From a phage, in sequence record PZ445410.1: a stretch of DNA of 51,474 nt. The stretch is one strand, 5' to 3'. This document shows positions 436-43,352 of the stretch, in pieces (the stretch's first letter is position 1; every line of letters starts with the position of its first letter). A program made the translations under genes and the position numbers. The notes beneath the pieces were generated by a model that saw only the letters and a program-made list of their open reading frames with translations, was not told the DNA's origin and did no database searches.

Positions 436-654
436 ATGTACATTAGCAAGAAGATGAAATGCGTTTCCGTTAATTATGGTTGTGCTGGAATGTTCAAGCC
501 TGGCGAAATCTATACGGCGCAAAAACTGAAATCATCAACCGGATCCTTTTACGTCAGCAACAGCAAAGGGCATCGCATGTTCCTGAACGGAGGTGAAGGC
601 ACTAAGGTTATGGCACACGCTATGGTAATTGCTGAATTTGAGGAAGTGAAATAA
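436..654 (+). CDS. hypothetical protein (73 aa)
   Basis: Internal ATG of track ORF 373..654 preceded by AAGGAGA RBS; lies downstream of the promoter-like cassette. Confidence 0.55.
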   Translation: MYISKKMKCVSVNYGCAGMFKPGEIYTAQKLKSSTGSFYVSNSKGHRMFLNGGEGTKVMAHAMVIAEFEEVK

Positions 655-1193
655 TGAAAAAATACGAATTTGAACTTTGGGGCAGCAAATACCATTTTTC
701 CACTAGCAAGCCGATTGTTATCGTTGACCTGGACGGAACGTTATCAGACGGAACGCATCGCTTACACCTTCTTCCGACAGAGGATTTACACCTTACAGAA
801 AGCTGGTCTGAGTTCAATAAGGCGGCTGTTGGCGATTCGCCGATTAAGAGCACTGTTGCAGTGGTTAACGGTTTGTGGATGTCAGGATTTGCCATCGTTA
901 TCCTGACCGGACGTAGCGATGAAGTGATGGAGGACACCTGCAAATGGATTAACGAAAACGGCATCAAGTACGATGCGTTAATCATGCGCCGCAAGGAAGA
1001 CAACCGCAAAGACACAATCATCAAAGAAGAAGTCTTGCGCGCTATCGGACTGGAAAACATTGTGTGCGCTTTTGATGATTCGCCGAACGTGGTTAAGCAC
1101 TTCCGAAGCCTGGGAATCACAACCTATCAGGTCACGGAATACGACAAGCCACACAATCATATCCAATCGCATGGCGTGGAGGAATTGAAATGA
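654..1193 (+). CDS. polynucleotide 3'-phosphatase, HAD superfamily (T4 Pnk C-terminal domain-like), stand-alone
   Basis: VIVDLDGTL (DxDGT HAD motif I), IVILTGRSD, RKDTIIKEEV, CAFDDSPNVV match the order and spacing of the T4 Pnk phosphatase domain motifs as I recall them. Confidence 0.7.
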   Translation: MKKYEFELWGSKYHFSTSKPIVIVDLDGTLSDGTHRLHLLPTEDLHLTESWSEFNKAAVGDSPIKSTVAVVNGLWMSGFAIVILTGRSDEVMEDTCKWINENGIKYDALIMRRKEDNRKDTIIKEEVLRAIGLENIVCAFDDSPNVVKHFRSLGITTYQVTEYDKPHNHIQSHGVEELK

Positions 1194-1923: not shown

Positions 1924-2061
1924 ATGAAGATGCGAAACTTCGAAAAAATCGTAACCAAGAAAAAGCGCTACAGCTACGACGAGCACCGCGAGATGAATCA
2001 ACGCTATCGCAAGAAGCGCCAGCGCACAGGTAAACATTCAAGCAGATATGGAGAAAACTAA
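1924..2061 (+). CDS. small basic protein (45 aa), not in ORF track
   Basis: ACAGGAG RBS then ATG; Lys/Arg-rich; stop 1 nt before next gene. Confidence 0.3.
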   Translation: MKMRNFEKIVTKKKRYSYDEHREMNQRYRKKRQRTGKHSSRYGEN

Positions 2062-2062
2062 T

Positions 2063-2653
2063 ATGAAGCGAGACATTATCATCCTTAACGGACCGCCAGG
2101 AGTTGGCAAGGATACGCTTGCGGCATACTTAACTGGCCATCGTTACGCAGCCGTTAAAGCGTCGTTTAAGCAACCGATGTTTGATATTGCATTCTCCATG
2201 CTTGGCGTTTACCTATATGACGAGTTCATTGATCTGTATAACGACCGCGAGCAGAAAGAAAAGCCTCAAGCAATCTTGCAAGGCAATTCGCCTCGCAAGT
2301 TCATGATCTGGATTAGCGAAGAAGTCATGAAGCCAGCTTTTGGCGAGCAATATTTCGGAAATCGCATGGTTGAGCAAGTACACGAGATGTACAGAGATTT
2401 GGCTGTTGTAATTAGTGATGGCGGATTCCCTGAAGAAATCAAGCCGCTCGTTAAGGCAGGCCATGAAGTTCACATTTGCCGACTGCATCGCGAAGGATTC
2501 ACGTTTGATGGCGATTCGCGAAACTATATTGACCTGAGCGGATACCATCACCGAGTCAAGCATTACGACTTCACAATGATTGATGGCGAGCCAGAAAAGA
2601 CTGTTGACGAGATCATCAAAACGGTGCAGTGGAAACACACAAAGATTGAATAG
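2063..2653 (+). CDS. P-loop nucleotide kinase (T4 gp1 dNMP kinase-like)
   Basis: Walker A GPPGVGKDT near N-terminus; GKDT..A..Y.AVK pattern resembles dNMP kinase as I recall it; start chosen at internal ATG with GGAG RBS. Confidence 0.5.
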   Translation: MKRDIIILNGPPGVGKDTLAAYLTGHRYAAVKASFKQPMFDIAFSMLGVYLYDEFIDLYNDREQKEKPQAILQGNSPRKFMIWISEEVMKPAFGEQYFGNRMVEQVHEMYRDLAVVISDGGFPEEIKPLVKAGHEVHICRLHREGFTFDGDSRNYIDLSGYHHRVKHYDFTMIDGEPEKTVDEIIKTVQWKHTKIE

Positions 2654-9607: not shown

Positions 9608-10371
9608 TGAAAGTGAAGGGCGTCGTTAAACAATGGCGCTTTCCTGAAGCAAGCGAGCGGCAATTTAGCCGCTCAATTCAGGAGGCAATTAGAGATCTTG
9701 TGGTTCTCATGCGCAAGCGAACAAAAGCGATGAAGTTTGACGCAACAGATAATGAGATCAACATCGCAGAAGATGAAATTAACAGCCTGGCAACTGACCT
9801 TATAGCTGGCATTGTTTCAGCTCTTCCTGCAATCGCGTTGACCATTTATAAATTCAATGCGAAGCAGTTTATCAATGTTGCCAAGTCAACTGGCGGAAAG
9901 GATAACACGGCGGTAATTGTTTTGATCGCGGTTGGCGCTAACGCTAACGAGGATTGGTATCAGACGCTATACGGTCAATGGCACGGGCTTACAGAATCAT
10001 CGCTAAGGAAGTTATTCACAAATATTGTGTCTGACTGGTCAACAAACATTCGCAATGCAAACTTTCGCGGAAGCAATGATAAACAGGTTAATGATCTTGC
10101 AGAAAAGAGATTTGCTGTTTATAGCTCCTGGGGTAAAACTAGATCAGAAAACATTATCGGCGCGTGGAATAGTCGCCTTATGCGCCAGCGCCTTTATGAT
10201 GCTAAGGTGACTCATTATTTCTGGCATGGAATGTTAGATGATAGAGAGCGCTTGCAGCATGTGTTATGGGAAGGTAAAAGAATAGCGCTTGATGCAATTC
10301 ATGATTTCCCTGGTGAGCCGTGGGGTTGCCGTTGCTGGGCGATTCCAGACTGGAATAATAAAGGAGAGTAA
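9607..10371 (+). CDS. head morphogenesis / minor capsid protein
   Basis: 254 aa directly after portal, ATGA overlap; assignment by gene order. Confidence 0.5.
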   Translation: MKVKGVVKQWRFPEASERQFSRSIQEAIRDLVVLMRKRTKAMKFDATDNEINIAEDEINSLATDLIAGIVSALPAIALTIYKFNAKQFINVAKSTGGKDNTAVIVLIAVGANANEDWYQTLYGQWHGLTESSLRKLFTNIVSDWSTNIRNANFRGSNDKQVNDLAEKRFAVYSSWGKTRSENIIGAWNSRLMRQRLYDAKVTHYFWHGMLDDRERLQHVLWEGKRIALDAIHDFPGEPWGCRCWAIPDWNNKGE

Positions 10372-10374
10372 TTA

Positions 10375-11487
10375 ATGAAGTCAAAACAAAGATTTGATAG
10401 CGTCCAGGTTAAGGCGCATTTTGATGATAATGGCTTTTTAGTGGATCGCCCAATTGTGGCGCGAATTGGTTTGCAGGAGTACCGCACACCGTATGGAATC
10501 AGACGAGAGTTCCGACCAGCGTCAGAGGTGTTTAAGGCTGATTCGCTTGCTACGTTCGCAGGCAAGCCGATCACTATCGGTCACGTCACAGTGACGCCAG
10601 ACAATGCGGATCAGGTTGTTGTTGGTTCATGCGCTGGCGCTGGTGTTCCAAATGGGATTGGCGTTGAAGTTCCGTTAAGCATTTACTCAAAGAGAGCAAT
10701 TGAGAGCGCAAAAAAGAAAGACACGGCGGAAATTTCAGTCGGTTACACATCGGTTGATATTGATAAGCCAGGATGGGGTAATAATAAAACTGGTGATTAC
10801 TTGTTTGAGGAAGACCTTAAGGAAGACTGGAAGCCTGATTCTCCTGATTGGGTTAAATTTGACGCCATTCAGACGAATATTCGTGTTAATCACATTGCGC
10901 TCGTCTTTCGTGGTCGTGCTGGAATTGCCAAATTAAATCTTGATAGCGAACAGGATTTTCCGTATAGTGACGAGGTTTCAAATGACAAAGGAGATGAGGA
11001 AATGACAGTAAAAATCAAACTTGATGGCGCGGTAGAATTTGATGTTCCAAAGGCCGTTGCTGATCATATTGAGGCGCTAAAGGCTGACGCAAAAGCTGCA
11101 ACCGAAAAAGCTGATGGCCTTGAGGCAGAGCGCGACGCCCTGAAAACTAAAGTCGATGGCATTCCGGCGCAGATTGCAGAAGCTGTTAAGAAGGCGAAGA
11201 CTGACGCAGAAGAACACGCCAAGCTGGTTGCAGATGCAACTGAAATTGGCATCAAGTGTGACGGCTTGGACGCTAAAGCGATCAAGGTTGCTTACGTCAA
11301 AGAAGTCACTGGCGCTGATATTTCAGAAAAAGCCGATGCATATATTGAAACAGCTTTTGACCTTGCGAAGCAGTCTGATAAAATGGCGGCGCAGCGTAAA
11401 TCTGTTAAGGGCGATTCTTTCGAGTCTGGCAAGAGTGAAAAAACCGACTCCCTTGATCCGACTGCGCGTTTGAAAAAACTTAAATAA
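10375..11487 (+). CDS. putative prohead protease and/or scaffolding protein
   Basis: 370 aa; C-terminal coiled-coil-like Ala/Lys/Glu-rich region; position before capsid genes. Confidence 0.4.
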   Translation: MKSKQRFDSVQVKAHFDDNGFLVDRPIVARIGLQEYRTPYGIRREFRPASEVFKADSLATFAGKPITIGHVTVTPDNADQVVVGSCAGAGVPNGIGVEVPLSIYSKRAIESAKKKDTAEISVGYTSVDIDKPGWGNNKTGDYLFEEDLKEDWKPDSPDWVKFDAIQTNIRVNHIALVFRGRAGIAKLNLDSEQDFPYSDEVSNDKGDEEMTVKIKLDGAVEFDVPKAVADHIEALKADAKAATEKADGLEAERDALKTKVDGIPAQIAEAVKKAKTDAEEHAKLVADATEIGIKCDGLDAKAIKVAYVKEVTGADISEKADAYIETAFDLAKQSDKMAAQRKSVKGDSFESGKSEKTDSLDPTARLKKLK

Positions 11488-27483: not shown

Positions 27484-28545
27484 ATGAATAAGTTTATGGC
27501 GTACACCAGCGAAGAAATGAGCAACGAGCTTTATCACAATCCAGAAGCGTGGACTGCTGATTATGTTAGCGGTTCAAGCCTGGCAGAGATTTACAGCACA
27601 TGCCCGGCAGCGTGGAAGTTCAAGCCGCGTGACGACAAGAGCAAGGCGCTAGTTTTTGGTACGCAGTCGCATACCAATTTTGAAAGCAAGGAGCTTTTCG
27701 AAAAAACCTATCGCCGTGCGCCAGCGCCAGAAGACTTTAAGGATCTGATAACCAGCCAAACGGCGCTTGCTGCAAAGCTAAAATCATTTGGCCTGAAAGG
27801 TACAACAGGAAAGACTTACCCTGAACTTATAAAAATGTTGGTTGACTGCGGAGAAGACCTTAACGTCATGTGGTTAATCGACATGATCGCAGAAAGTCAA
27901 GCCAGGGCCGATGGGGTTCAGTTAATCGAAGCTAAAGATTACGATGCGTGCGTGGCAATGCGCCAGGTTCTGGAATCAATACCGGAACATAACGCATGTA
28001 TGAATAGCAAGACGGCACAACGTGAATTATCGTTATTCGGTGAAATCAACGGCGTAAAAGTCAAAGTGCGATGCGATCACGTTGACGTAACAAAGAACGT
28101 GACAGCAACTCTTATTGATGGTTACGATGAAAAAGGTCAGCCGATTTGCCGCGATATTATTTATCCAGAAGCTATTGTGATCACTGACTACAAAACAACA
28201 ATGAGCGCTAATCCGGTTGAGTTTATGCGCCTGGCTTACAATCACGGCTATTATTTGAAAATGGCGTTGCAATGTGATTTATTCAGAAAAGCGTATCCAG
28301 AAGAAAAGCGACCTATAGTTGTGCGACTGTTAGCGCAAGAGAAGAAAGAGCCTTATTTGCCGTTGGCTTTTCGCATGAATAGCGAGCAATTAAAGATCGG
28401 GCGCATTCAGTACATGAGCGTGATTAACCAGTTTGCCATGTGCCAGCAGCATGACGTTTGGCCTTCGTATTCAAACGGTGAGCCGGAGGTTTGCCTTGAT
28501 ACTCCTGATTGGGTGCGCCGCCAGTTTAAGCAATATCTTATTTAA
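27484..28545 (+). CDS. RecB-family PD-(D/E)XK exonuclease (recombination exonuclease)
   Basis: RCDHVDV and VITDYKTT nuclease motifs; followed by Erf-like and SSB genes. Confidence 0.6.
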   Translation: MNKFMAYTSEEMSNELYHNPEAWTADYVSGSSLAEIYSTCPAAWKFKPRDDKSKALVFGTQSHTNFESKELFEKTYRRAPAPEDFKDLITSQTALAAKLKSFGLKGTTGKTYPELIKMLVDCGEDLNVMWLIDMIAESQARADGVQLIEAKDYDACVAMRQVLESIPEHNACMNSKTAQRELSLFGEINGVKVKVRCDHVDVTKNVTATLIDGYDEKGQPICRDIIYPEAIVITDYKTTMSANPVEFMRLAYNHGYYLKMALQCDLFRKAYPEEKRPIVVRLLAQEKKEPYLPLAFRMNSEQLKIGRIQYMSVINQFAMCQQHDVWPSYSNGEPEVCLDTPDWVRRQFKQYLI

Positions 28546-28953: not shown

Positions 28954-29610
28954 ATGAAACTATCAGAGCAATTCGACAAGGTTTTACCAGCACTGCATAA
29001 GGCGCGTAGTTTGTTTGTAAAGGTGAAGAAGGATAAGCAAAATACGCACCTTAAAAACCGTTACGCAACACTTGATGCCGTACTTGATGCAATCACTCCA
29101 GCATTGAACGATAACGAGCTAATGTTGATGCAGGATATGATTGAAAGCGAACAACCTAACAGAATCAAGGTTGAGACAACAGTTCTTCATGTTTCTGGTC
29201 AGTGGGTTAAATTTTACGCAGAGCTACCAATCGTCAAAAACGATCCTCAAGGCGTCGGATCTGCATTCACATACGCGCGTCGTTATGCAGCCGCAGCAGC
29301 ATTTGGCTTAAGCCAGGCAGACGATGATGCACAAATTGCTGTTAAATCTGCAAACGACTGGAAACGTGACATTGAGAAATGCGAGAGCGTAAACGAATTG
29401 CAAGAAGTGCTAAAATCAGCATGGAAGGCAAGCGATCCGGCAAGCAAGCAGGTAATTAAAGAGCATTACGAAAAGCGCAAGGCAGAGCTTGAGATCGGCA
29501 AAGCACGAGGATTTAATCCAGCGCAACCAAAGCAAAATCTTGCCTCGCCAGAAGTTGACACAAAAAACGACGAGCAAGTAAAATCACAAAGTATCACTGA
29601 TTTTGAATAA
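28954..29610 (+). CDS. ERF-family single-strand annealing protein (putative)
   Basis: [12 protein letters not shown] motif as recalled for Erf proteins; between exonuclease and SSB. Confidence 0.55.
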
Positions 29611-29654: not shown

Positions 29655-30107
29655 ATGCATATTATTACTGGTGAGATCCGAAAAGAGCCGCGAGTAAAGC
29701 AAATGCCTAACGGCAGCACACTTTATGTAGTTGAACTTCCAGAGCGATACAAAGATAAAGATGGAAACTGGCAATATACAAACTACAGTTTCTTTTTTAA
29801 TGCTAAAACAGAAGGTATTAAGGGTTGGTATGATGAGGCGTTCCAGGTTGGCAAGGTTATTTCTGTATCTTGCGACACTCTGCGCATTGAAACGCGAGAA
29901 TACAACGGAAAGATGTATTCAAGTTTAATGCCAGGAGGATTTGCAAATCTTATCTTCAGTCAGCGCGGGGAAAGCCAGCAACAATATCAGCAGCGAACGC
30001 AATGGGGATGGGGCCAACCACAACAACAGAATCAACCGCAACAACCGCAACAGCCAAGACAAAGCAATCAGCCACCTATGGATTTTGACGACGACATCCC
30101 TTTTTGA
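29655..30107 (+). CDS. ssb: single-stranded DNA-binding protein
   Basis: OB-fold-like N-terminal region, Gln/Pro-rich linker, C-terminal tip DFDDDIPF as in E. coli SSB. Confidence 0.85.
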   Translation: MHIITGEIRKEPRVKQMPNGSTLYVVELPERYKDKDGNWQYTNYSFFFNAKTEGIKGWYDEAFQVGKVISVSCDTLRIETREYNGKMYSSLMPGGFANLIFSQRGESQQQYQQRTQWGWGQPQQQNQPQQPQQPRQSNQPPMDFDDDIPF

Positions 30108-35115: not shown

Positions 35116-36048
35116 TTAGAGAATTGATTCAGGTTTGAAAACCTTCCTCTCTATCCCTTGCCTGTAATTATCATTAATCGGCATCATAATTTCAAGTCCT
35201 CTTTCCTCGGCAGCAATGATCGCGTCACGGTCTGTACTCTTACAGACAACTCTCATTCTTCTGTTTCCCTTATACCTGTAAGCCACAATCTCAATGTTAG
35301 TTGCATCAAAGCAGGCCCAGACCTCTTGACCAGTTGCAAGGTGGATGTGTTGCGCATCAATCCAGTCAACGCAAAGATAGATCGTCTTATCTGTACTTCC
35401 TGTTCTCACAATCGACCCTCGCGTGTAGTCCTTTGCGAGAAAAGACTGATTGCCGTCTTCATCAATGAAAAGCACATTGCACATTTCATCATCAATCTCA
35501 TCTGAGTGTACCAGGTGACACGGTAACGCGTGAATGTATCGGCCATCTTTTACGCCGCAATCATAATGACCATCTTCAGGCGGGTATATTCCTTCATATG
35601 TGCTTAACGGCGTGCGATCAAATTTTAGTGTTTTTGACATAACGCGCTCGCAGCATTCATGGCTTGCCTGTTTCCCAAACGAATAACCAGAATCACGAGA
35701 TACTCGCTTATTTGCCTTGATCCTATAGTCCTGCGGAACTTTTCCAAGAAAACGGCCCAAAATATTGATCACTTCGCTGTAAGGTTCTCCGGTTAGCTTC
35801 ATGATCCAACCAATTCCGGTATCATTACCGCACACGTTGCAGATCGCACCGCCATCGCCTTTTTTATCGCCAAGTTTATCCGTCCATCTGAAGCGATCCT
35901 TTCCGCCGCAGTGTGGGCAAGATTGATGCTTTCCGTTAAAAACTTCATTTGGAAGACCGCAAATACTTTGTAGCGCCTCACGCCACAATCCTTGCATATA
36001 TGGGAGAACATCTTCCTTTTGATAAACCATAAAGTTTTCGTTATTCAT
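35116..36048 (-). CDS. DNA primase (zinc-binding)
   Basis: CPHCGG...CNVCG zinc-binding motif; acidic DEIDDE / DEDG region; GAGGTG RBS. Confidence 0.6.
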
Positions 36049-36103
36049 ATACACCTCAAACAAAAAAGCCTGACAGATGATAACATCATGCCAGGCATTG
36101 TTT

Positions 36104-36577
36104 TTAGCAATTAGTGCTTTCAGGTTTATACAGGAATCCGCCAGGTTCATAATCTGACATTCTTACCACTCGCAACATTTCACGCTTATCACATCTCTTT
36201 GTGAGCGGTTTGCCATTGGAATCAAATCGCAGGTCTGGACGACAGAATGATGCGCGATAGCCTTGACATCCATATTTTTTGTAATCGTTATGCACCTTTT
36301 GAGCGCCAGCGGCTGAAATCATACCGCGAACGCGCCACTGATTTACAGTTTGCTGGCTAACGTTAAGACGTTTTGCCATTGCTGACACGCTTCCGTAATA
36401 CTCAATAAGGATGTCAAGTCGCGCTTTTAGTCCGGCGCGCACTTCATCTTTTAAAACATAGTATCCCGTAGGGCGCTTGCGCTTCTTCTTATCCTTTCCT
36501 CTTCGAGTTCCGTTATTGCCATTAATTGTGCGCTTGTCAATCTTGCCTGTTGATACTGCGATTCGTTGCTCTTTCAT
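36104..36577 (-). CDS. HTH DNA-binding protein (Cro/YdaS-like)
   Basis: SVSAMAKRLNVSQQTVNQWRVRG helix-turn-helix; basic N-terminus; divergent from helicase gene. Confidence 0.5.
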   Translation of the reverse strand: MKEQRIAVSTGKIDKRTINGNNGTRRGKDKKKRKRPTGYYVLKDEVRAGLKARLDILIEYYGSVSAMAKRLNVSQQTVNQWRVRGMISAAGAQKVHNDYKKYGCQGYRASFCRPDLRFDSNGKPLTKRCDKREMLRVVRMSDYEPGGFLYKPESTNC

Positions 36578-36591
36578 TATTCATTCTCCAA

Positions 36592-36633
36592 TAGCATTTT
36601 TTGTTAAACGATGATTTAATGATTGTGTATTAT
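36592..36633 (+). promoter_or_regulatory. TAGCAC-box variant (TAGCATTTTTTGTTAAACG) with TATTAT
   Basis: Motif at canonical spacing upstream of helicase. Confidence 0.45.
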
Positions 36634-36666
36634 ACACGCCAAATGGCATTACTCAAAGGTTTTAGA

Positions 36667-38706
36667 ATGATTCCAAACATTGAAAAGCAAATATCAACAC
36701 TTGGTGAAACGGTAATTAAATCCATTCAGGAGCGATTCACTGTTGGCGAGATTGTGCCTTACCATTACCAGTGCGTTGCATACGCTGAGATCGCAAAGCG
36801 TATGAAAAATTATGAGCATCCATTCTTTGTTAAAGCGTCCGTATCGGCTGGCAAAACATTGATGTTTGCAATGGTTGCTCACCAGTGCCGGAAAATGGGC
36901 TTGAAAATGATGGTCCTTGCTCGCCAGGCTGAGATTGTGGATCAGGATTCTGAAGAGATAACAAATCTTGGTGTGCCGAACTCCATCTATTGTGCAGGAC
37001 TGAAGACAAAAAGCGCATACTTTCCGATCGTTGTTGGTTCTGAGGGAACTGTAGTTAATGGACTGTTTAAAGCGCTTGGCGACTATGTTCCGCACGTTAT
37101 CGGGATTGACGAGTGTCACCAGGTGGATTGGGAAGACCTTGCCGACGCAATAGAGAAAGACGAATCATTTTTACAAATGACAACGAAGAAAGGCGAAAAA
37201 GTACCAAATCCAGATTATGACATAACGAGCGATAACGAATGCGAAGAGTTCCTGATTGGTGAGGATGGCTTGCCAATGGAGGGAACAGGCCGCACACAAT
37301 ACACTGTCATTATCATGGAAATGATGCGCCGCTGCCGGAAAACATATGGTCATGAACTGCGCATATTTGGCATGACTGGATCGGAGTTTCGCGGCGTAGT
37401 CCCGATCCTGGTAGAAGACAAAAAACAGAAAGGATTCTGGCGTGAACAGGTTACTAATATTGACACCAACTACCTGATCAAATTCGGTTCTGTTGTGCCA
37501 ACAAATTTTGGCGACGTTGGCGATCTAGGGTATGACCTTTCAGAGTTTGAGGCATCCAGTGAGGATGGAGTTGCAGACTTTGACGCTAAAACGCTTCGCA
37601 GGATGGAACAAAAAATTCATGAAGAAGCGACCATGACAAAGCGCATCATGGCGAAAGTTCACGAGATCTGTAAAAACCGCAACGGCGTACTTGTGACATG
37701 TGCAGGAGAAAGGCATTGCAAAGAGGCAGCGGCAGCGTTGCCACCTGGAACTACTTACAGGATCATTACTGGTAAGACTGGCGACAATCAGCGCAAGGAG
37801 TGGTTGAGGGAAGCATACGAAGGGAAGGTAAAATACATCTTCCAGGTTCAGGCGCTAACTACTGGCGTTAACGTGCCGTTTTGGGATACGTCTGTTATTC
37901 TGCGTAAGATTGGATCGCTAACTTTGCTGATTCAGCTTTTAGGACGCGGAATGCGACTTCTTAAGAAATGGCATAAGGAACAAGGCTTCAAGAAAGATGA
38001 TCACCTGGTTATGGATTTTTCAGGAACGATGGACGAGTTAGGTGAGCTTTATTTTGATCCGATACTGGAACAGGCGCAACATCAGAAGCGATTCAGGAAC
38101 GGTAAAGATCCGAAGCCTTGTCCTGTTTGCGGAACTCTTAATAGCTATTATGCTCGTCGTTGTATGCACGTAGACGAAAACGGCAACAGATGCGAGTGGT
38201 TCTTTAAATTCAGGACATGTGATGATCAGATTGACCCGCGCACTAAAAAGATTATTCAGCGCGGTTGTGGAACGAAAAATGATATTGCGGCCAGGGTATG
38301 CAGACATTGCGACATGTCATTGATTGACCCTAACGAGAAGTTAAGCGGAAAGCACTACACAAAAAACGACTGGTTTCAGGTGCAATCTTTCTCGGTTGAC
38401 ATGACGAAAAACCAGAAAGGGATAATATTTAATTATGAGCTTTCCGATGGCATAGATACTTTCAGGGCGAGAGAGATATTTTTCCCTGAATCTGAGAGCC
38501 AAATTTGCCGCGCAAAATGGCGAAGCGTTGCTCTTAAGCACATACCAGATCGCCGTGTTGCTGGCATGGTGGCGAGCTATCGTAATGCACGAAAAATAAT
38601 GCAATATGTTAATCACATTATGCCGCCATCGCGTGTTACTCACAGAAAGACTAGCAATGGCGAAGATAATTTATACAAGAAGGACTTTAATTATGGCAAT
38701 GACTGA
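36667..38706 (+). CDS. superfamily 2 DEAD/DEAH-type helicase with zinc ribbon
   Basis: Walker A SAGKT, DECH box, C-terminal CPVCG...C...C; start chosen at ATG with AAAGG RBS. Confidence 0.7.
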   Translation: MIPNIEKQISTLGETVIKSIQERFTVGEIVPYHYQCVAYAEIAKRMKNYEHPFFVKASVSAGKTLMFAMVAHQCRKMGLKMMVLARQAEIVDQDSEEITNLGVPNSIYCAGLKTKSAYFPIVVGSEGTVVNGLFKALGDYVPHVIGIDECHQVDWEDLADAIEKDESFLQMTTKKGEKVPNPDYDITSDNECEEFLIGEDGLPMEGTGRTQYTVIIMEMMRRCRKTYGHELRIFGMTGSEFRGVVPILVEDKKQKGFWREQVTNIDTNYLIKFGSVVPTNFGDVGDLGYDLSEFEASSEDGVADFDAKTLRRMEQKIHEEATMTKRIMAKVHEICKNRNGVLVTCAGERHCKEAAAALPPGTTYRIITGKTGDNQRKEWLREAYEGKVKYIFQVQALTTGVNVPFWDTSVILRKIGSLTLLIQLLGRGMRLLKKWHKEQGFKKDDHLVMDFSGTMDELGELYFDPILEQAQHQKRFRNGKDPKPCPVCGTLNSYYARRCMHVDENGNRCEWFFKFRTCDDQIDPRTKKIIQRGCGTKNDIAARVCRHCDMSLIDPNEKLSGKHYTKNDWFQVQSFSVDMTKNQKGIIFNYELSDGIDTFRAREIFFPESESQICRAKWRSVALKHIPDRRVAGMVASYRNARKIMQYVNHIMPPSRVTHRKTSNGEDNLYKKDFNYGND

Positions 38707-39112
38707 TAAAGGCGATTATCTTGAGTTTTACGAAAGAGATCCGACGGATACGCTAAAAGAGGAATCACACCAGATTGGGGCGTTTCAATGGTTAACTTAT
38801 GCTCATCCTGAATTGCTGGCATGGCATACGAAAAACGAGGGCGACAAGGGAATCGCCACAGCAATGATGGATCAGCAAGCTGGACTTGTTAAGGGAGTAA
38901 GTGATTTTATCATCCTGATTGGATTAAAAGGCCGTTACCCGTTCGCGGCAATAGAGATGAAGCGCGTCAATAAGTCCGGCAAGGGGAAGGCTTCACCAGT
39001 CAGCAAGGAGCAAAAAGCCTTCTTGCGCCGCGTGCGTGAGCTTGGCGGATTCGCTGCCGTAACATACGGATATAAGCAATTCATGATCGCGGTAGAATAC
39101 ATGATGAAATAG
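38693..39112 (+). CDS. VRR-NUC domain nuclease (putative)
   Basis: PD-(D/E)XK-like VSDFIIL...AAIEMKR; SKEQKAFL...G pattern; overlaps helicase stop. Confidence 0.5.
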   Translation: MAMTDKGDYLEFYERDPTDTLKEESHQIGAFQWLTYAHPELLAWHTKNEGDKGIATAMMDQQAGLVKGVSDFIILIGLKGRYPFAAIEMKRVNKSGKGKASPVSKEQKAFLRRVRELGGFAAVTYGYKQFMIAVEYMMK

Positions 39113-39186: not shown

Positions 39187-39888
39187 ATGAGTAAAGAAAC
39201 TGAAGTGACATTTGAACAAATAGAACGAGAAACATTCATTGGCAATGCTCTTGCTACTGGAGGCCATTACCAGGCTGTTAAACCAAATCAATATTTCAAA
39301 GTGACTGGCAACCGCTATAACGGCAGCAATACGCCTGACATTGTGCGCGATTTGTGGTCTACGCCGTATGAACTTGTCGCATGGATGGAAAGCGAATACG
39401 GTGATTATGACATCGACGCGGCGGCAAGCAAAGAAAATGCTGTATGTGAAAAATTCTACAGCAAGGAAACAAATTGCTTAAAGCGTTGGTGGGGTAGTAA
39501 CAAGCATATATGGCTGAATCCGCCGTACAGCAATATAACGCCTTTCGTTAAGAAAGCGATTGAGCAAATGGAGCACAATAACCAGATCGACATTCTGTTA
39601 CCTTGCGACACATCAACAGGATGGTTTTATGAAGCGCAGCAGCGCGCAGCGGAAATCATCTGGATCACTGGCGAAGTTTACCAGGAGGACGGAACAGAAT
39701 ATTCCCGCACAGGACGCCTTGCGTTTACCTCTGCTCTTACAGGTAAACCAGTACAGGGAAACAACAAAGGAAGCGTTATTTTCATCATGCGCGAACTTAA
39801 AGAAGGTGAGCAGCAGAAAACTCGATACGTTAAAATCAGCGACATTTGCCCTTCGGTGGCAGACCGTCGCGCACGGAAACGGAGCTAA
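39187..39888 (+). CDS. dam: DNA N6-adenine methyltransferase (Dam-like)
   Basis: NPPY catalytic motif in WLNPPYSNITPF; 233 aa. Confidence 0.7.
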   Translation: MSKETEVTFEQIERETFIGNALATGGHYQAVKPNQYFKVTGNRYNGSNTPDIVRDLWSTPYELVAWMESEYGDYDIDAAASKENAVCEKFYSKETNCLKRWWGSNKHIWLNPPYSNITPFVKKAIEQMEHNNQIDILLPCDTSTGWFYEAQQRAAEIIWITGEVYQEDGTEYSRTGRLAFTSALTGKPVQGNNKGSVIFIMRELKEGEQQKTRYVKISDICPSVADRRARKRS

Positions 39889-39892
39889 AACA

Positions 39893-40153
39893 ATGCAGAA
39901 AGAAAGAAGAGTTGTACTTAATGAAGATGGCGAATTTCTTTTGTATCGCGCTATGGTATGCGATGCACTTGATAAAAACCCTAACGTGAAAAAGATGATT
40001 GATTGCGATCCGTGGGAATTTTCAAGCGCATTAGATATGAGCTTTGAGGAGACAAAAAAACTCCCACTTGAAAAATGGCACGAACAAATCAGAAATGACA
40101 TGCAAGAATTTGTCGATTCGTGGAATTTTCAGAACGGAATGATCCACCAATAG
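39893..40153 (+). CDS. hypothetical protein (86 aa)
   Basis: GGAG RBS then ATG; track ORF 39560..40153 extends this frame back over the methylase and is rejected. Confidence 0.45.
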   Translation: MQKERRVVLNEDGEFLLYRAMVCDALDKNPNVKKMIDCDPWEFSSALDMSFEETKKLPLEKWHEQIRNDMQEFVDSWNFQNGMIHQ

Positions 40154-40193
40154 CACTTTTTGTTAAAACGCCCGACCTTGTGTCGGGCATAAT
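40151..40193 (+). promoter_or_regulatory. TAGCAC-box promoter-like cassette (CATAAT at 40188-40193)
   Basis: TAG is the upstream stop; GCCCGAC..GTCGGGC inverted repeat in spacer. Confidence 0.5.
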
Positions 40194-40225
40194 TATTTCA
40201 TCAAAACGAACAAGAGGAAAACAAA

Positions 40226-40405
40226 ATGGTTGTTTACGATCCACGCGCTTTTAAAATTGCTCAAGAAGTTTCACGCGAATCTGTTGCTGGCGGTTCGGTT
40301 AACGGATATCAGTTTGATTGGTCGGCAGCAATGACCCTGCTTAAGGTTGCATATGGTCACGCGCCAATTGAAACAGCGGAGGAATATTATAAGCATGAAG
40401 GTTGA
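40226..40405 (+). CDS. small hypothetical protein (59 aa), not in ORF track
   Basis: AGAGGAAAACAAA RBS. Confidence 0.4.
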   Translation: MVVYDPRAFKIAQEVSRESVAGGSVNGYQFDWSAAMTLLKVAYGHAPIETAEEYYKHEG

Positions 40406-40637
40406 ACAAGGTAGGCAGGCCGTATGGGATCACGCAAAGGAGTGCGGGATCTCTGAAGACATAGCCATGATAGCAAAATATTTTGATATTGCTGACATAA
40501 GCATTATCAGCGGCGACAAAATGACATTTCTCAATGAACGACCGCGCAAGATGCATCGCGTACCAGCAATACCAACAAAGATTGATTTCAAAGAGGCTAT
40601 GGCGAAAATTCGCGAGCCGCGCAAATACTACAAATGA
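40395..40637 (+). CDS. hypothetical protein (80 aa)
   Basis: GGAGG RBS before internal ATG of track ORF. Confidence 0.45.
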   Translation: MKVEQGRQAVWDHAKECGISEDIAMIAKYFDIADISIISGDKMTFLNERPRKMHRVPAIPTKIDFKEAMAKIREPRKYYK

Positions 40638-40732
40638 GGATTATTATCATGTGGCGTTTGTTACTTTTGCCCTTACCTGTTATGATGGCGATCTCTATTG
40701 TATACGTTGTCATAATGAGATAAGGAGAATTT

Positions 40733-41851
40733 TTGATGAAGCAAATCAAAATCACAGATGAACAATTTATCAATGAGCGCAAGCAGGGAAAGACATATAA
40801 GCAGATCGCTAATGAGTATGGCATGAACGTTCGCAGCATTGAGCGCCGCGCGGCACGATTAGCAAAGCAAGGTAAAGTTACAACCATCGGATCGCCTGGT
40901 TTTGGTGTTACTGGAGAATCAAAGCTAATTGATAAAGATGGCAATGTGGTTATGACATGGATTAAGACAAGTAAGGACCGCGAACAGCTAGAAGCATTAA
41001 TGCAGGCCGCTATTGATGCATTTAGCGAAGAAGTCCCTCGACTTGATCCGCAGCCAGAATCACAAAAGGATTATAGCGAGACGTTATCACTGTATCCGAT
41101 CTTTGATATGCACTTGGGCGCAATGGCGCATAAGCATGAATGCGGCGAGAACTGGGATACAGCAACAGCAGAGCGCGTAATGAATAATTTCATTGATTAT
41201 TCCATCCAGTGCGCGCCGGATAGCGAAAATGCTGTTTTGCTGATTGGTGGTGACATGCTGCATAGTGACGGCCTGGAAGCGGTGACACCTGCAAGCGGTC
41301 ACGTATTGGATCAAGATAGTCGATACGCAAAACTTGTTTATGTTGCCATCCGGTCAGTGCGTAGAGCAATTACAAAGCTGTTATCAAAACACAAAAACGT
41401 CGAGATTCAGATCATTGAAGGCAACCACGACCAAAGCGGCATGATCTGGTTGCGCGCAGCAATGGCGGCAGCATATGAGAATGAGCCACGAGTGCATGTT
41501 GATGTGTCTCCGCGAGTAGTTCATCACACACAATATGGCAAAACATTCCTGGCATACCATCACGGGCACACTATCCGCAAGCCTGAAACATTGCTCATGA
41601 TGTGCGCAGCAGACTGGCGCGAAGACTTCGGCAATTCAAAAATGATGTATGCTCACGTAGGGCATTGGCATCATCAAACAGTAACCGAAACAAGCCTGGG
41701 AATTGTTGAAGTGCATAGCACTATGGCGGCAAAAGATGCATATGCGGCGCGCGGTGGATGGCGTTCTCGCCGCCGTGCGGCTGTTATTGTTTATGATAAA
41801 GAATACGGAGAAGTGGGGCGATTTATGCATTATCCAGAAATTGCTGGTTGA
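40733..41851 (+). CDS. HTH domain fused to calcineurin-like metallophosphoesterase
   Basis: N-terminal HTH KTYKQIANEYGMNVRSIERR; phosphoesterase motifs DMH, GGDMLHSDG, EGNHD, HHGH. Confidence 0.55.
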   Translation: MMKQIKITDEQFINERKQGKTYKQIANEYGMNVRSIERRAARLAKQGKVTTIGSPGFGVTGESKLIDKDGNVVMTWIKTSKDREQLEALMQAAIDAFSEEVPRLDPQPESQKDYSETLSLYPIFDMHLGAMAHKHECGENWDTATAERVMNNFIDYSIQCAPDSENAVLLIGGDMLHSDGLEAVTPASGHVLDQDSRYAKLVYVAIRSVRRAITKLLSKHKNVEIQIIEGNHDQSGMIWLRAAMAAAYENEPRVHVDVSPRVVHHTQYGKTFLAYHHGHTIRKPETLLMMCAADWREDFGNSKMMYAHVGHWHHQTVTETSLGIVEVHSTMAAKDAYAARGGWRSRRRAAVIVYDKEYGEVGRFMHYPEIAG

Positions 41852-41894
41852 ACTTTTAATCATTAAAATATAAATATAAATCATCAATTTAATT

Positions 41895-41925
41895 GGGCGT
41901 GGCATTTTGCTTCGCCCTTTTTTTA
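41895..41925 (+). terminator. intrinsic terminator
   Basis: GGGCG...CGCCC then T8. Confidence 0.5.
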
Positions 41926-41997
41926 TTCCTTTTTGTGCGTTCAATGGTTAGGATACAAACAATTAATTGTTGACTTTTATATACAGGAGATCTAATC

Positions 41998-42213
41998 ATG
42001 AAAGATTTTTTAAACGCTGCAACTTCCGGCACTGGCGGCGCGTCAATCACTGGCGCGGTAACTGGTCAAACAACTATTGCAATAGCCAGCTTCGTTTTGA
42101 TGGCTGCATTTGGTATGTGGGGCGCTTATCTTCGCTGGCGTGATAGTAAGGCGCTACGTGACGCGCTTGAATGCGGTGATATTAAGAAAGCTATTGAGAT
42201 CAGAGGGAAATAA
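41998..42213 (+). CDS. holin (probable pinholin)
   Basis: 71 aa, hydrophobic TMD, charged C-terminus, immediately upstream of SAR endolysin. Confidence 0.6.
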
Positions 42214-42701
42214 TGAGTATAAAACAAAGAGTGACCGCTGCGGCTTTTGGCGTTGCTCTTGCCCTTACTTCTCCGCTACTGGAGGAAATAGAAGGAGTAA
42301 AACATAAGCCGTACAAAGATATTGCTGGGATATGGACGGTTTGCGCCGGAATAACTGGACCTGACGTAATACAAGGCAAAACGTACACACAAAGAGAGTG
42401 CGATGCACTACTGGCAAAGCATATCAAGATCGCAAAGGATGAAGTTGATAAGCGTGTAAAGGTTGACATTCCTGATACAATGCGCGCAGCAATGTATTCA
42501 TTCACATACAATGCTGGAACTGGAGCTTTTAGAAATTCAACCATGCTTAAGCTGATTAATAACGGTCGTTATATGGAAGCGTGCAATCAGTTATGGCGAT
42601 GGACAAAATACACCAATCCAAAAACAGGAAAGAAAGAAACGTCTAAAGGACTGCGCAACCGCCGCGCGGTGGAATTTAAATATTGCATTAAGGATCTGTA
42701 A
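42213..42701 (+). CDS. SAR endolysin (T4-type lysozyme fold)
   Basis: N-terminal Gly/Ala-rich SAR-like segment then [23 protein letters not shown], close to P21 R-type catalytic region as I recall it. Confidence 0.75.
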
Positions 42702-42703
42702 TC

Positions 42704-43102
42704 ATGAGAAAGTTATCAGCAATCGCGATCGCTGTTATTTTGTCTGGATGTTCAAGCGTTACGCCACTGACCGGATTAATCGGTAGTAAGCCGGAAATCA
42801 CAGCACAGGCAGGAGCGGAGAACGTAAAGCAGACCGTTGGCGTTACCGCAAAGCAGGACACCAGCACAAAACAGGAAACTACAATAAAGGAATCTGCGGT
42901 TGATAAGGTGGACACTTCCAGCAAGAAGGATTTCACTACGTCAACCATTCAGGCTAACACCATCAAGGCTGATAAAATCCAGGTTGTGCAGGGTGAGCAA
43001 AGTAAGTGGTACGATCCTATAATCTATTGCGCTGCAATTTTCAGTGGTCTTTTGTCAATGCTTTACTTTTCCTACCGCAAAGGCAACAAAAAGGAGGCTT
43101 AA
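42704..43102 (+). CDS. unimolecular spanin (T1 gp11-type)
   Basis: Lipoprotein signal with lipobox LSGC plus C-terminal TMD; 132 aa; last gene of lysis cassette. Confidence 0.7.
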   Translation: MRKLSAIAIAVILSGCSSVTPLTGLIGSKPEITAQAGAENVKQTVGVTAKQDTSTKQETTIKESAVDKVDTSSKKDFTTSTIQANTIKADKIQVVQGEQSKWYDPIIYCAAIFSGLLSMLYFSYRKGNKKEA

Positions 43103-43117
43103 CGCCTCCTTTGTTTT
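43093..43117. terminator. bidirectional terminator-like hairpin
   Basis: GGAGGC-TTAAC-GCCTCC then TTTGTTTT. Confidence 0.5.
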
Positions 43118-43352
43118 ATAGTGAATCCATCAAATCTTGAAAGCTGTTTCCGCTATAATCATTCTCGACAAGAATGTAAGCACCTTTCTTCTTTATATCC
43201 CATAGCATTTCATTGTATTCGTAACGATTTATTTCAAACGTGCTGCCATCTTCTCTTGTCGCAGTTCCTTTGTCGTTGAAAACATCAAAAGTTACATTGA
43301 TGATTTTTGTCTCTTTCTTTGTTACTTTGATAGCCATTTTTAAAATCCTCAT
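43116..43352 (-). CDS. hypothetical protein (78 aa)
   Basis: ORF downstream of minus-strand promoter-like cassette. Confidence 0.5.
   Translation of the reverse strand: MRILKMAIKVTKKETKIINVTFDVFNDKGTATREDGSTFEINRYEYNEMLWDIKKKGAYILVENDYSGNSFQDLMDSL

Follow-up and report, generated by a model that had tools for sequence, protein, structure and literature searches.

What would a protein that joins a helix-turn-helix (HTH) to a calcineurin-like metallophosphoesterase (MPE) be doing next to the lysis genes of a phage? The question is raised by an open reading frame (ORF) in sequence record PZ445410.1, a phage DNA of 51,474 nucleotides (nt) that was analysed at its full length and is here called the window. 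In an initial annotation, the fusion was considered unusual, the position of the gene was held to recall that of the Ser/Thr phosphatase in the lambda nin region, and a DNA-targeted phosphoesterase or nuclease was thought possible. We find that the gene belongs to an already catalogued phage family in which the fusion is the rule, and we regard its product as probably a DNA-tethered binuclear-metal nuclease of phage DNA metabolism.

Results

Domain architecture and conservation

The ORF runs on the plus strand from a TTG at 40733 or an ATG at 40736 to position 41851, giving 372 or 371 amino acids (aa), and no start is available further upstream because of an in-frame TAA at 40721. The ATG is the more likely start, since the Shine-Dalgarno sequence in front of it fits this codon, and the protein considered here thus has 371 aa (Table 1). 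The ORF, the N-terminal HTH and the motifs listed in the initial annotation (DMH, GGDMLHSDG, EGNHD and HHGH) were all present, as was a fifth motif, GHWHH, that had not been listed. Together they reproduce the motif order of the MPE superfamily (DxH, GD, GNH(D/E), H, GHxH) as D124-x-H126, G172-D173, G229-N230-H231-D232, H276 and G309-H310-x-H312. Loss of metal-ligand residues was looked for in an alignment of 122 homologs sharing 31-58% identity with the window protein: D124, H126, D173, N230, H231, H276, G277 and H312 are invariant, H310, G172, G229 and D232 are at least 90% conserved, and the metal ligands of the HTH-MPE family overall are 94-100% conserved. Conservation that is particular to the family extends to H176 and D178 in motif II, to E135, R252 and D334, and to a loop, T184-P-x-S-G-H-x-L-D192-x-D194-x-R196, in which L191, too, is conserved. 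Judged by its residues, the predicted two-metal site is intact and the enzyme should be catalytically competent, and the description of the protein as an HTH fused to a calcineurin-like MPE with intact catalytic residues was borne out.

The Metallophos search that had been proposed as a check of this description stayed below its threshold: Pfam Metallophos (PF00149) scores 15.3 bits on the window protein against a gathering cut-off of 21.5 (E 0.029), and it reaches E ≤ 0.01 in 28 of the 122 family members. The catalytic domain is a divergent MPE clade missed by the Pfam model, and because of this the MPE assignment rests on motifs, conservation and fold.

An N-terminal HTH is indeed present, though its signal is weak in the window protein alone, which matches Pfam HTH_28 with an E of 0.0026, under the Pfam cut-off. 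When the N-termini of the 122 members were scanned, HTH_1 was found in 23, HTH_8 in 16, HTH_50 in 14 and Sigma70_r4_2 in 12 (best E 1.5e-9), and GerE, HTH_23 and HTH_28 were matched too. Residues 1-50 of the window protein carry a net charge of +7, and the net charge of the helix-3 segment is at least +2 in 89% of the 150 best cluster representatives from the family search described below. In the 122-sequence alignment, the HTH is the least conserved region of the protein and the catalytic residues are the most constrained; in the hairpin that follows the HTH, W75 is at least 90% and K77 80% conserved.

Predicted structure and fold neighbours

AlphaFold returned a predicted local distance difference test (pLDDT) score of 74.5 with a shallow alignment and of 93.5, with a predicted template modelling (pTM) score of 0.78, when the diverse 122-sequence alignment was supplied. 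The N-terminus forms helices at residues 8-16, 21-28 and 32-46, the mean pLDDT per 10-residue block being 76-95 over residues 1-40. A linker of lower confidence (aa ∼47-55) separates the HTH from the remainder, and the block means then rise from 76 for aa 51-60 to 84-94 over aa 61-100. Residues 114-365 fold into the double beta-sheet sandwich characteristic of the MPE superfamily.

The closest solved fold is that of the archaeal PolD DP1 proofreading exonuclease (score 15.9 over 208 aligned residues), followed by T. maritima Mre11 (14.8), S. aureus SbcD (14.6), MJ0936 (14.1) and LpxH (13.6); ranks 6-11 are taken by five more Mre11 structures and one more SbcD (13.0-13.5), and PP5, of the PPP phosphatase family, appears only at about rank 55 (9.2). 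The weaker first model had similar fold neighbours. With PolD DP1, Mre11 and SbcD as its closest solved folds, a DNA-targeted phosphoesterase or nuclease is the best fit among the options that had been offered for this protein. A Foldseek comparison with viral models returned many phage proteins of the same build, none of them characterised. No sequence homolog of the MPE domain was found in the PDB, either with the single sequence or with the family profile, which gave only weak HTH matches there, to GerE, RhlR and DesR.

Family membership and distribution

The gene is already known and catalogued, as T1 gp16 and as phrog_704, and is a core annotated gene of T1-like phages. A profile match over the full length (residues 5-368 on profile positions 3-387 of 390, E 1.4e-150) and a gene order conserved in Drexlerviridae place the window protein in the phrog_704/T1 gp16 orthologous group. 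At the nucleotide level, the best matches to positions 40000-43200, with 94-97% identity, are Escherichia, Shigella and Salmonella phages of the genus Hanrivervirus (Drexlerviridae, T1-like). Because the named relatives in that genus (JLBYU41, phiE31-2, G29-2 and pSf-1) have genomes about as long as the window, the latter is essentially a complete T1-like genome. The T1 ortholog is gene 16 (ST16, YP_003929.1; T1 coordinates 40822-41955), that of G29-2 is gp67, at the same genomic position, and that of TLS is gp66, directly 5' of the TLS holin gp67. The window protein agrees with T1 gp16, TLS gp66 and phrog_704 in length, architecture, genomic position (3' of the helicase, VRR-NUC and Dam genes and 5' of the lysis cassette) and the presence of a terminator after the gene; they differ in the last few C-terminal residues (371 aa vs 376 aa), which is nothing material. 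Several deposited proteins are 99% identical to it.

The family is widespread. By tblastn, the protein was found in 2037 of 50,697 phage records, 1951 of which cover at least 80% of it, and the hosts include Escherichia, Klebsiella, Salmonella, Vibrio, Flavobacterium, Rhodobacter, Ruegeria and Thermus. When 1.84 billion cluster representatives (clustered at 50% identity) were searched exhaustively with HMMER, 4624 clusters matched at E ≤ 1e-3 and, of these, 1040 at E ≤ 1e-30. Among the 150 best representatives, nearly all have a length of 370-420 aa, and 143 have at least 46 residues before the first conserved beta-hairpin. Because the N-terminal extension and the HTH matches occur family-wide, the HTH-MPE fusion is the family norm, and the view that it is unusual has to be given up.

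Three conflicting automatic names are in circulation: "phosphoesterase", "DNA repair exonuclease" and "DNA polymerase II small subunit / proof-reading exonuclease". The records of the relatives read "putative phosphoesterase", "calcineurin-like phosphoesterase domain-containing protein", "DNA repair exonuclease" or "hypothetical protein", phrog_704 is labelled "DNA repair exonuclease" or "putative phosphoesterase", and TLS gp66 was called a "proof-reading exonuclease" in a 2024 re-annotation (PMC11447400). Homologs from E. coli (P0067, 380 aa), Yersinia phage 281 (gp052) and Salmonella phage JD02 are named "Rrf2 family transcriptional regulator" or "winged helix-turn-helix domain-containing protein", the HTH having overridden the undetected phosphoesterase domain.

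Two oddities of the records deserve mention. Twenty "Campylobacter phage" records match the T1-like region by DNA and 60 match the protein by tblastn, among which phage A121 (MG065670.1) is 91% identical to the protein, and Streptococcus phage MBBL140 (P0051) has a 78%-identical protein; since such hosts are implausible for enterobacterial T1-like phages, contamination or mislabelled records are suggested. In Salmonella phage JD02 (L095, 1489-3833), the MPE gene is apparently split. It proved to be intact (384 aa) and to be followed by a local duplication, consisting of a truncated Rha-family gene, a 108-aa ORF repeating the C-terminal part of the MPE, and second copies of the small ORF and of the Rha gene, and an intron or homing insertion was thus ruled out.

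Genomic context in the window and in T1

The HTH-MPE gene ends a plus-strand block in which it is preceded by genes for a helicase, a VRR-NUC-like protein and Dam and by three small ORFs (Table 1). Taken at its longest, the ORF of the VRR-NUC-like protein shares ∼100 nt with the 3' end of the helicase ORF; because the annotated overlap of these genes in G29-2 is 14 nt, the true start is probably near 38690. A promoter-like site in the gap upstream of the HTH-MPE gene is weak, as shuffled sequence would be expected to yield at least as many such sites as the region contains.

Downstream of the gene, an intrinsic terminator separates it from the holin gene. Its hairpin has a free energy (dG) of -14.6 kcal/mol (z -3.86), none of 200 shuffles was equally stable, and the sequence is identical in phage G29-2; in T1, a terminator is annotated at the corresponding position after gene 16, and an HNH gene and a small ORF lie between this terminator and the holin gene. 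The initial annotation was correct in placing the gene just 5' of the lysis genes (holin, endolysin and spanin), but a functional link to lysis was not supported: because the terminator stands between the gene and the holin, the adjacency is positional, and the gene appears to belong to the early/middle set of DNA-metabolism genes and not to the lysis cassette. An HNH gene is directly 3' of the MPE gene in T1 (42028-42510) and in the unrelated Vibrio phage 95E28-1 (6064-6573), and one is found within three genes downstream in 2 of the 30 dereplicated loci described below; the window has no HNH gene there.

Elsewhere, the window encodes a second helicase and, as listed in Table 1, PNK, a deoxynucleoside monophosphate (dNMP) kinase and proteins of recombination and replication. 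All window ORFs of more than 400 aa encode terminase, portal, tape measure, tail tip or tail fibre proteins or the two helicases, and no ORF for a Rad50/SbcC-type ATPase was found in the window or in T1.

Table 1. Positions in the window of the HTH-MPE gene, its parts, its flanking signals and other genes
Feature	Position	Strand	Remarks
HTH-metallophosphoesterase CDS	40736..41851	+	371 aa plus stop; T1 gp16 (ST16)/TLS gp66 ortholog, phrog_704 member
N-terminal tri-helical HTH domain, aa 1-46, basic	40736..40873	+	HTH family matches, AlphaFold helices, charge
Beta-hairpin (aa 56-80) and long helix (aa 82-99), packed with catalytic domain	40901..41032	+	AlphaFold, conservation
Metallophosphoesterase catalytic domain, aa 114-371	41075..41848	+	five motifs
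MPE motif I, D124-M-H126	41105-41113	+	
MPE motif II, GGDMLHSDG, aa 171-179	41246-41272	+	
MPE motif III, EGNHD, aa 228-232	41417-41431	+	
MPE motif IV, HHGH, aa 275-278	41558-41569	+	
MPE motif V, GHWHH, aa 309-313	41660-41674	+	
Shine-Dalgarno AAGGAGA	40722..40728	+	7 nt before ATG 40736; read from sequence
Promoter-like site TTGTTA, 17 nt, TG-TATGAT	40658..40686	+	consensus match only, in 98-nt gap 5' of gene
Intrinsic terminator, hairpin GGGCG-UGGCAUUUUGCU-UCGCCC then seven T	41895..41924	+	between HTH-MPE gene and holin (41998)
Helicase	36601-38706	+	
VRR-NUC-like protein (so annotated in G29-2)	about 38690-39112	+	longest ORF 38606-39112
Dam methyltransferase	39187-39888	+	
Holin	start 41998		
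Endolysin	start 42213		
Spanin	start 42704		
PNK	654-1193		
dNMP kinase	2048-2653		
RecE-like exonuclease VIII	27484-28545		
Erf	28954-29610		
SSB	29655-30107		
Primase	35116-36150	-	

Genomic context in other phages and prophages

In lambdoid prophages of E. coli, the early-right replication module contains an ortholog of 65% identity, 19 base pairs (bp) upstream of a gene for a DnaB-type helicase. The gene order there (contigs L002-L005, gene at 10001-11119 of each locus) is cI-like repressor, cro-like gene, Lin1244_N protein, ANT/Bro antirepressor, HTH-MPE, DnaB-type helicase and, later, NinB, so that the gene occupies the usual place of replication genes of the lambda O or P22 gp18 type. 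Elsewhere, orthologs are found in a small island among the tail genes of Jerseyviruses, after holin and endolysin in RcIroh, and between two endolysin genes, with an HNH gene downstream, in Vibrio phages. In the N4-like phage DFL12phi1, the ortholog follows genes for dCTP deaminase, a dATP/dGTP pyrophosphohydrolase (MazG-like) and thymidylate synthase; it precedes PNK and dNMP kinase in Yersinia phage 281 and a nucleotidase and dNMP kinase in Thermus phage Lalka27b. The neighbours in other prophages are NinG in Marinobacter, a Q-like gene in Pseudoxanthomonas, a MazG-like enzyme in Stenotrophomonas and dNMP kinase in Mesorhizobium.

For a broader sample, 30 dereplicated IMG/VR loci were inspected over three genes on each side; a genome scan for related loci, with narrower alignments, returned 9 loci. 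About a quarter of the 30 IMG/VR loci contain a holin or endolysin, and the remaining neighbours are a mix of PNK, dNMP kinase, Endo VII, HNH, exonuclease, primase, polymerase, helicase and ligase. No single neighbour conserved across lineages was found among the IMG/VR loci, the neighbour families being heterogeneous. The common theme of these neighbourhoods is DNA and nucleotide metabolism, and enzymes of the dNMP pool recur.

Discussion

The feature is ordinary as sequence; its value is as a pointer to a very common phage family for which no experiment was found in the searchable literature. A DNA-tethered binuclear-metal nuclease of phage DNA metabolism is the activity that we consider probable for it. 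The basic N-terminal HTH, on its flexible linker, would keep the enzyme on duplex DNA, and the MPE domain (D124, H126, D173, N230, H231, H276, H310, H312) would hydrolyse phosphodiester bonds at ends or nicks, releasing 5'-dNMPs if it behaves like Mre11, SbcD and DP1. No Rad50/SbcC or polymerase partner would be needed. We infer that DNA is the substrate and that the HTH binds it, and the biological role is likewise inferred.

For that role, two proposals are worth considering. The one that we favour, tentatively and by analogy, is that the nuclease may break down the host chromosome and thereby feed salvage by the phage dNMP kinase and PNK, as T5 A1 does. To our knowledge, T5 A1 and Gp48 of mycobacteriophage A10ZJ24 are the only phage enzymes of the MPE superfamily with genetic evidence, and both destroy host DNA. 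This role is favoured because of these two precedents, because of an unassigned activity of T1, and because dNMP kinase and other nucleotide-pool genes recur as neighbours. The unassigned activity is the degradation of the host genome, with reuse of its nucleotides, by T1 and TLS; according to the TLS paper, the early gene products responsible are still to be identified (PMC11447400). The window phage itself encodes PNK and dNMP kinase and no DNA polymerase, which counts in favour of the main reading. If so, the HTH-MPE of the T1 gp16 type may possibly be the nuclease by which T1-like phages dismantle the host chromosome and recycle its nucleotides, a single-chain counterpart of T5 A1 plus A2, and "HTH plus divergent MPE" might then be a general, repeatedly evolved device for host-genome destruction in thousands of phages; we offer this as a speculation with less than even chances. 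Ranked next, and somewhat more doubtful still, is a part in processing replication or recombination intermediates together with the phage helicases and RecE/Erf, which is considered because genes for DnaB, primase, NinG and Endo VII occur as neighbours and because the family is frequent in temperate prophages.

Several observations weigh against a nuclease of this kind and, in particular, against host-DNA breakdown. Guilt by association carries little weight, since the neighbourhood changes from lineage to lineage. Orthologs occur commonly in temperate prophages, inside or beside the early replication and nin regions, because of which an indiscriminate destroyer of the host chromosome is an awkward proposition. 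T1-like phages have other nuclease candidates, namely the RecE-like exonuclease VIII, VRR-NUC, an HKD nuclease-helicase and HNH proteins. Comparisons with SbcD, lambda NinI and T5 A1 showed no sequence homology beyond single motifs: by hhalign, the family profile aligned with E. coli SbcD with a probability of 2.5% and over the GNHD segment only, and its comparison with lambda NinI was null. For T5 A1, BLASTP with the window protein gave an E of 0.31, the family profile gave a probability of 21% over 20 columns around motif III, and a profile-profile comparison with the A1 family gave a non-significant probability of 28% in the HTH region only. Finally, no experimental work on the HTH-MPE family was found in the searchable literature. 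Nothing specific was found there, either, on T1 gene 2.5 mapping, Drexlerviridae essentiality screens and escape mutants, and an assignment of the classical T1 "gene 2.5", defined by host-degradation mutants, to ST16 could not be made.

The same evidence bears on what else the protein might be. If the HTH served for autoregulation or localisation only, the enzyme could be a small-molecule phosphodiesterase acting on cyclic (oligo)nucleotide immune signals (in the style of anti-CBASS, Pycsar or type III CRISPR), on Ap4A, or on deoxynucleoside tri- or diphosphates (dNTP/dNDP). We think this unlikely: DNA nucleases lead the structural matches, motif II is Mre11-like, no PADLOC defence or anti-defence model matches, and it is not easy to see why a soluble enzyme that degrades signals should keep an HTH in thousands of diverged members. 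The top rank of DP1 raises the alternative of a replisome accessory or scaffold that, like the polymerase B-subunits DP1 and Pol delta p50, would bridge the phage helicase/primase and the host polymerase, possibly with 3'-5' proofreading or primer removal. This is a little less plausible again, as the phage has neither a polymerase of its own nor a DP2-like partner, there is no evident OB fold between the HTH and the MPE core, just a hairpin and a helix, and replication genes adjoin the gene in a minority of lineages only.

A transcription factor acting through its HTH on specific phage or host promoters, with the MPE as a sensor or regulatory module, would account for the HTH matches to regulator families (LysR, Fis, sigma-70 region 4 and GerE/LuxR) and for the homologs named as an Rrf2 family regulator (in one case) or as winged-HTH proteins. 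Those names are automatic annotations, however, and a regulator with a degenerate enzyme domain should show the opposite of the observed pattern, in which the catalytic residues are the most constrained and the HTH the least, so we consider this improbable. The position of the gene 5' of the lysis genes, which recalls the lambda order ninI-Q-S-R-Rz, the shared superfamily, and the two prophages in which the gene follows NinG or a Q-like gene of the nin region would all suit a Ser/Thr/Tyr protein phosphatase like that of lambda (lambda-PP), acting on host proteins late in infection; with the motifs, the NinI profile comparison and the fold rank all against it, this likeness was not sustained and such an activity is very improbable. 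A lysis-associated function, co-regulated with holin and endolysin, might be, for example, degradation of DNA that makes the lysate viscous or, as with LpxH, attack on a lipid or cell-wall pyrophosphate precursor. This seems the least probable of all: the gene is cut off from the holin by a terminator here and in T1, T1-like lineages supply most of the holin and endolysin neighbours, which thus represent inherited synteny, the gene is far from any lysis gene in many lineages, and the HTH argues for DNA.

Host-DNA breakdown is the function lost in the classical high-transduction mutants of T1. Should gp16 prove to be the host-degrading enzyme, the generalised-transduction behaviour of T1 would be explained, the source of degradation products (e.g., m6dAMP) that are sensed by newly described defence systems would be identified, and phage engineers would have a deletion target on the way to cleaner transduction or safer therapeutic phages.

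How the protein relates to characterised enzymes can be considered family by family. Lambda NinI belongs to the PPP family, whose signature motifs are GDxHG, GDxVDRG and GNHE; the window protein reads FDMHLG, GGDMLHSDG and GNHD, and these motifs are thus unmatched. The two proteins share the MPE superfamily and a like position 5' of Q and the lysis genes, but lambda-PP has no HTH and represents a different subfamily, and the analogy was ruled out by the motifs, the profile comparison and the low rank of PP5 among the fold matches. The ligase-associated nuclease PdeM (TIGR04123) was not matched at the NCBIfam cut-off. Mre11 and SbcD, of which T4 gp47 and T5 D13 are the phage versions, come closer. 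Motif II of Mre11 reads GDLFH, and G-D-M-L-H in the window protein fits the nuclease-type pattern GD(L/I/V)(F/Y)(H/D); the fold agrees as well, Mre11/SbcD being among the closest solved folds. However, a capping domain of the Mre11 type is lacking, because only 59 residues follow motif V, and the N-terminal module of HTH and hairpin is not present in Mre11. Membership in the Mre11/SbcD family was ruled out by the missing capping domain, the missing Rad50/SbcC partner and the lack of profile homology. PolD DP1 is the best fold match, yet shares 14% sequence identity and has a different biological setting; the phage encodes no DP2 or polymerase and the protein has no clear OB fold, which sets it apart from DP1 and the polymerase B-subunits, the eukaryotic versions of which are inactive. 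Because no named family fits, the protein represents a separate clade of the superfamily, most like its nuclease branches.

Among phage MPEs, Gp48 of the cluster A mycobacteriophage A10ZJ24 has phosphodiesterase activity and all five motifs, is expressed early, and was reported to disrupt host genome integrity, the damage to host genomic DNA disabling defence gene expression (PMC12287305). We see no relationship to it beyond the superfamily, the sequences not having been directly compared; no HTH is described for Gp48, and Mycobacterium phages are outside the ten most frequent organism names in our tblastn summary.

T5 A1 is the more instructive comparison. Of the pre-early factors, A1, a predicted metallophosphatase, alone is necessary and sufficient for the degradation of host DNA; the authors liken it in structure to double-strand break (DSB) repair nucleases and polymerase proofreading subunits, and A2 is a DNA-binding protein (bioRxiv 10.64898/2026.04.02.716235). 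Both A1 and the HTH-MPE protein are divergent phage MPEs missed by Pfam Metallophos, both have the five motifs in equal order, including H-G-H as motif IV and GH-x-H as motif V, and both T5 and T1 degrade host DNA. The two proteins differ in that A1 is longer (556 aa), a large additional region separating its N-terminus from the MPE core, is pre-early and essential, and is needed also for second-step DNA transfer. They agree in that a DNA-binding module accompanies the MPE: T5 pairs A1 with a separate DNA-binding protein, A2, encoded adjacent to it. Relatives of A1 outside the T5-like phages (∼46-48% identical to A1, ∼530 aa) often have N-terminal HTH matches in Pfam, HTH_23 being the commonest family (7 of 32) and HTH_38, HTH_7, CENP-B_N and HTH_3 the others (such relatives are P0342, P0344-P0346, P0348, P0372 and P0384 in alignment A8), and none of the 32 is matched by Pfam Metallophos. 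At least two phage families without a detectable sequence relationship thus combine an HTH with a divergent MPE. Homology to T5 A1 was not supported by the profile-profile comparison, and A1 was kept as an analogue only. With no homology shown below the superfamily level, the HTH-MPE and A1 families are analogous in architecture and perhaps in function.

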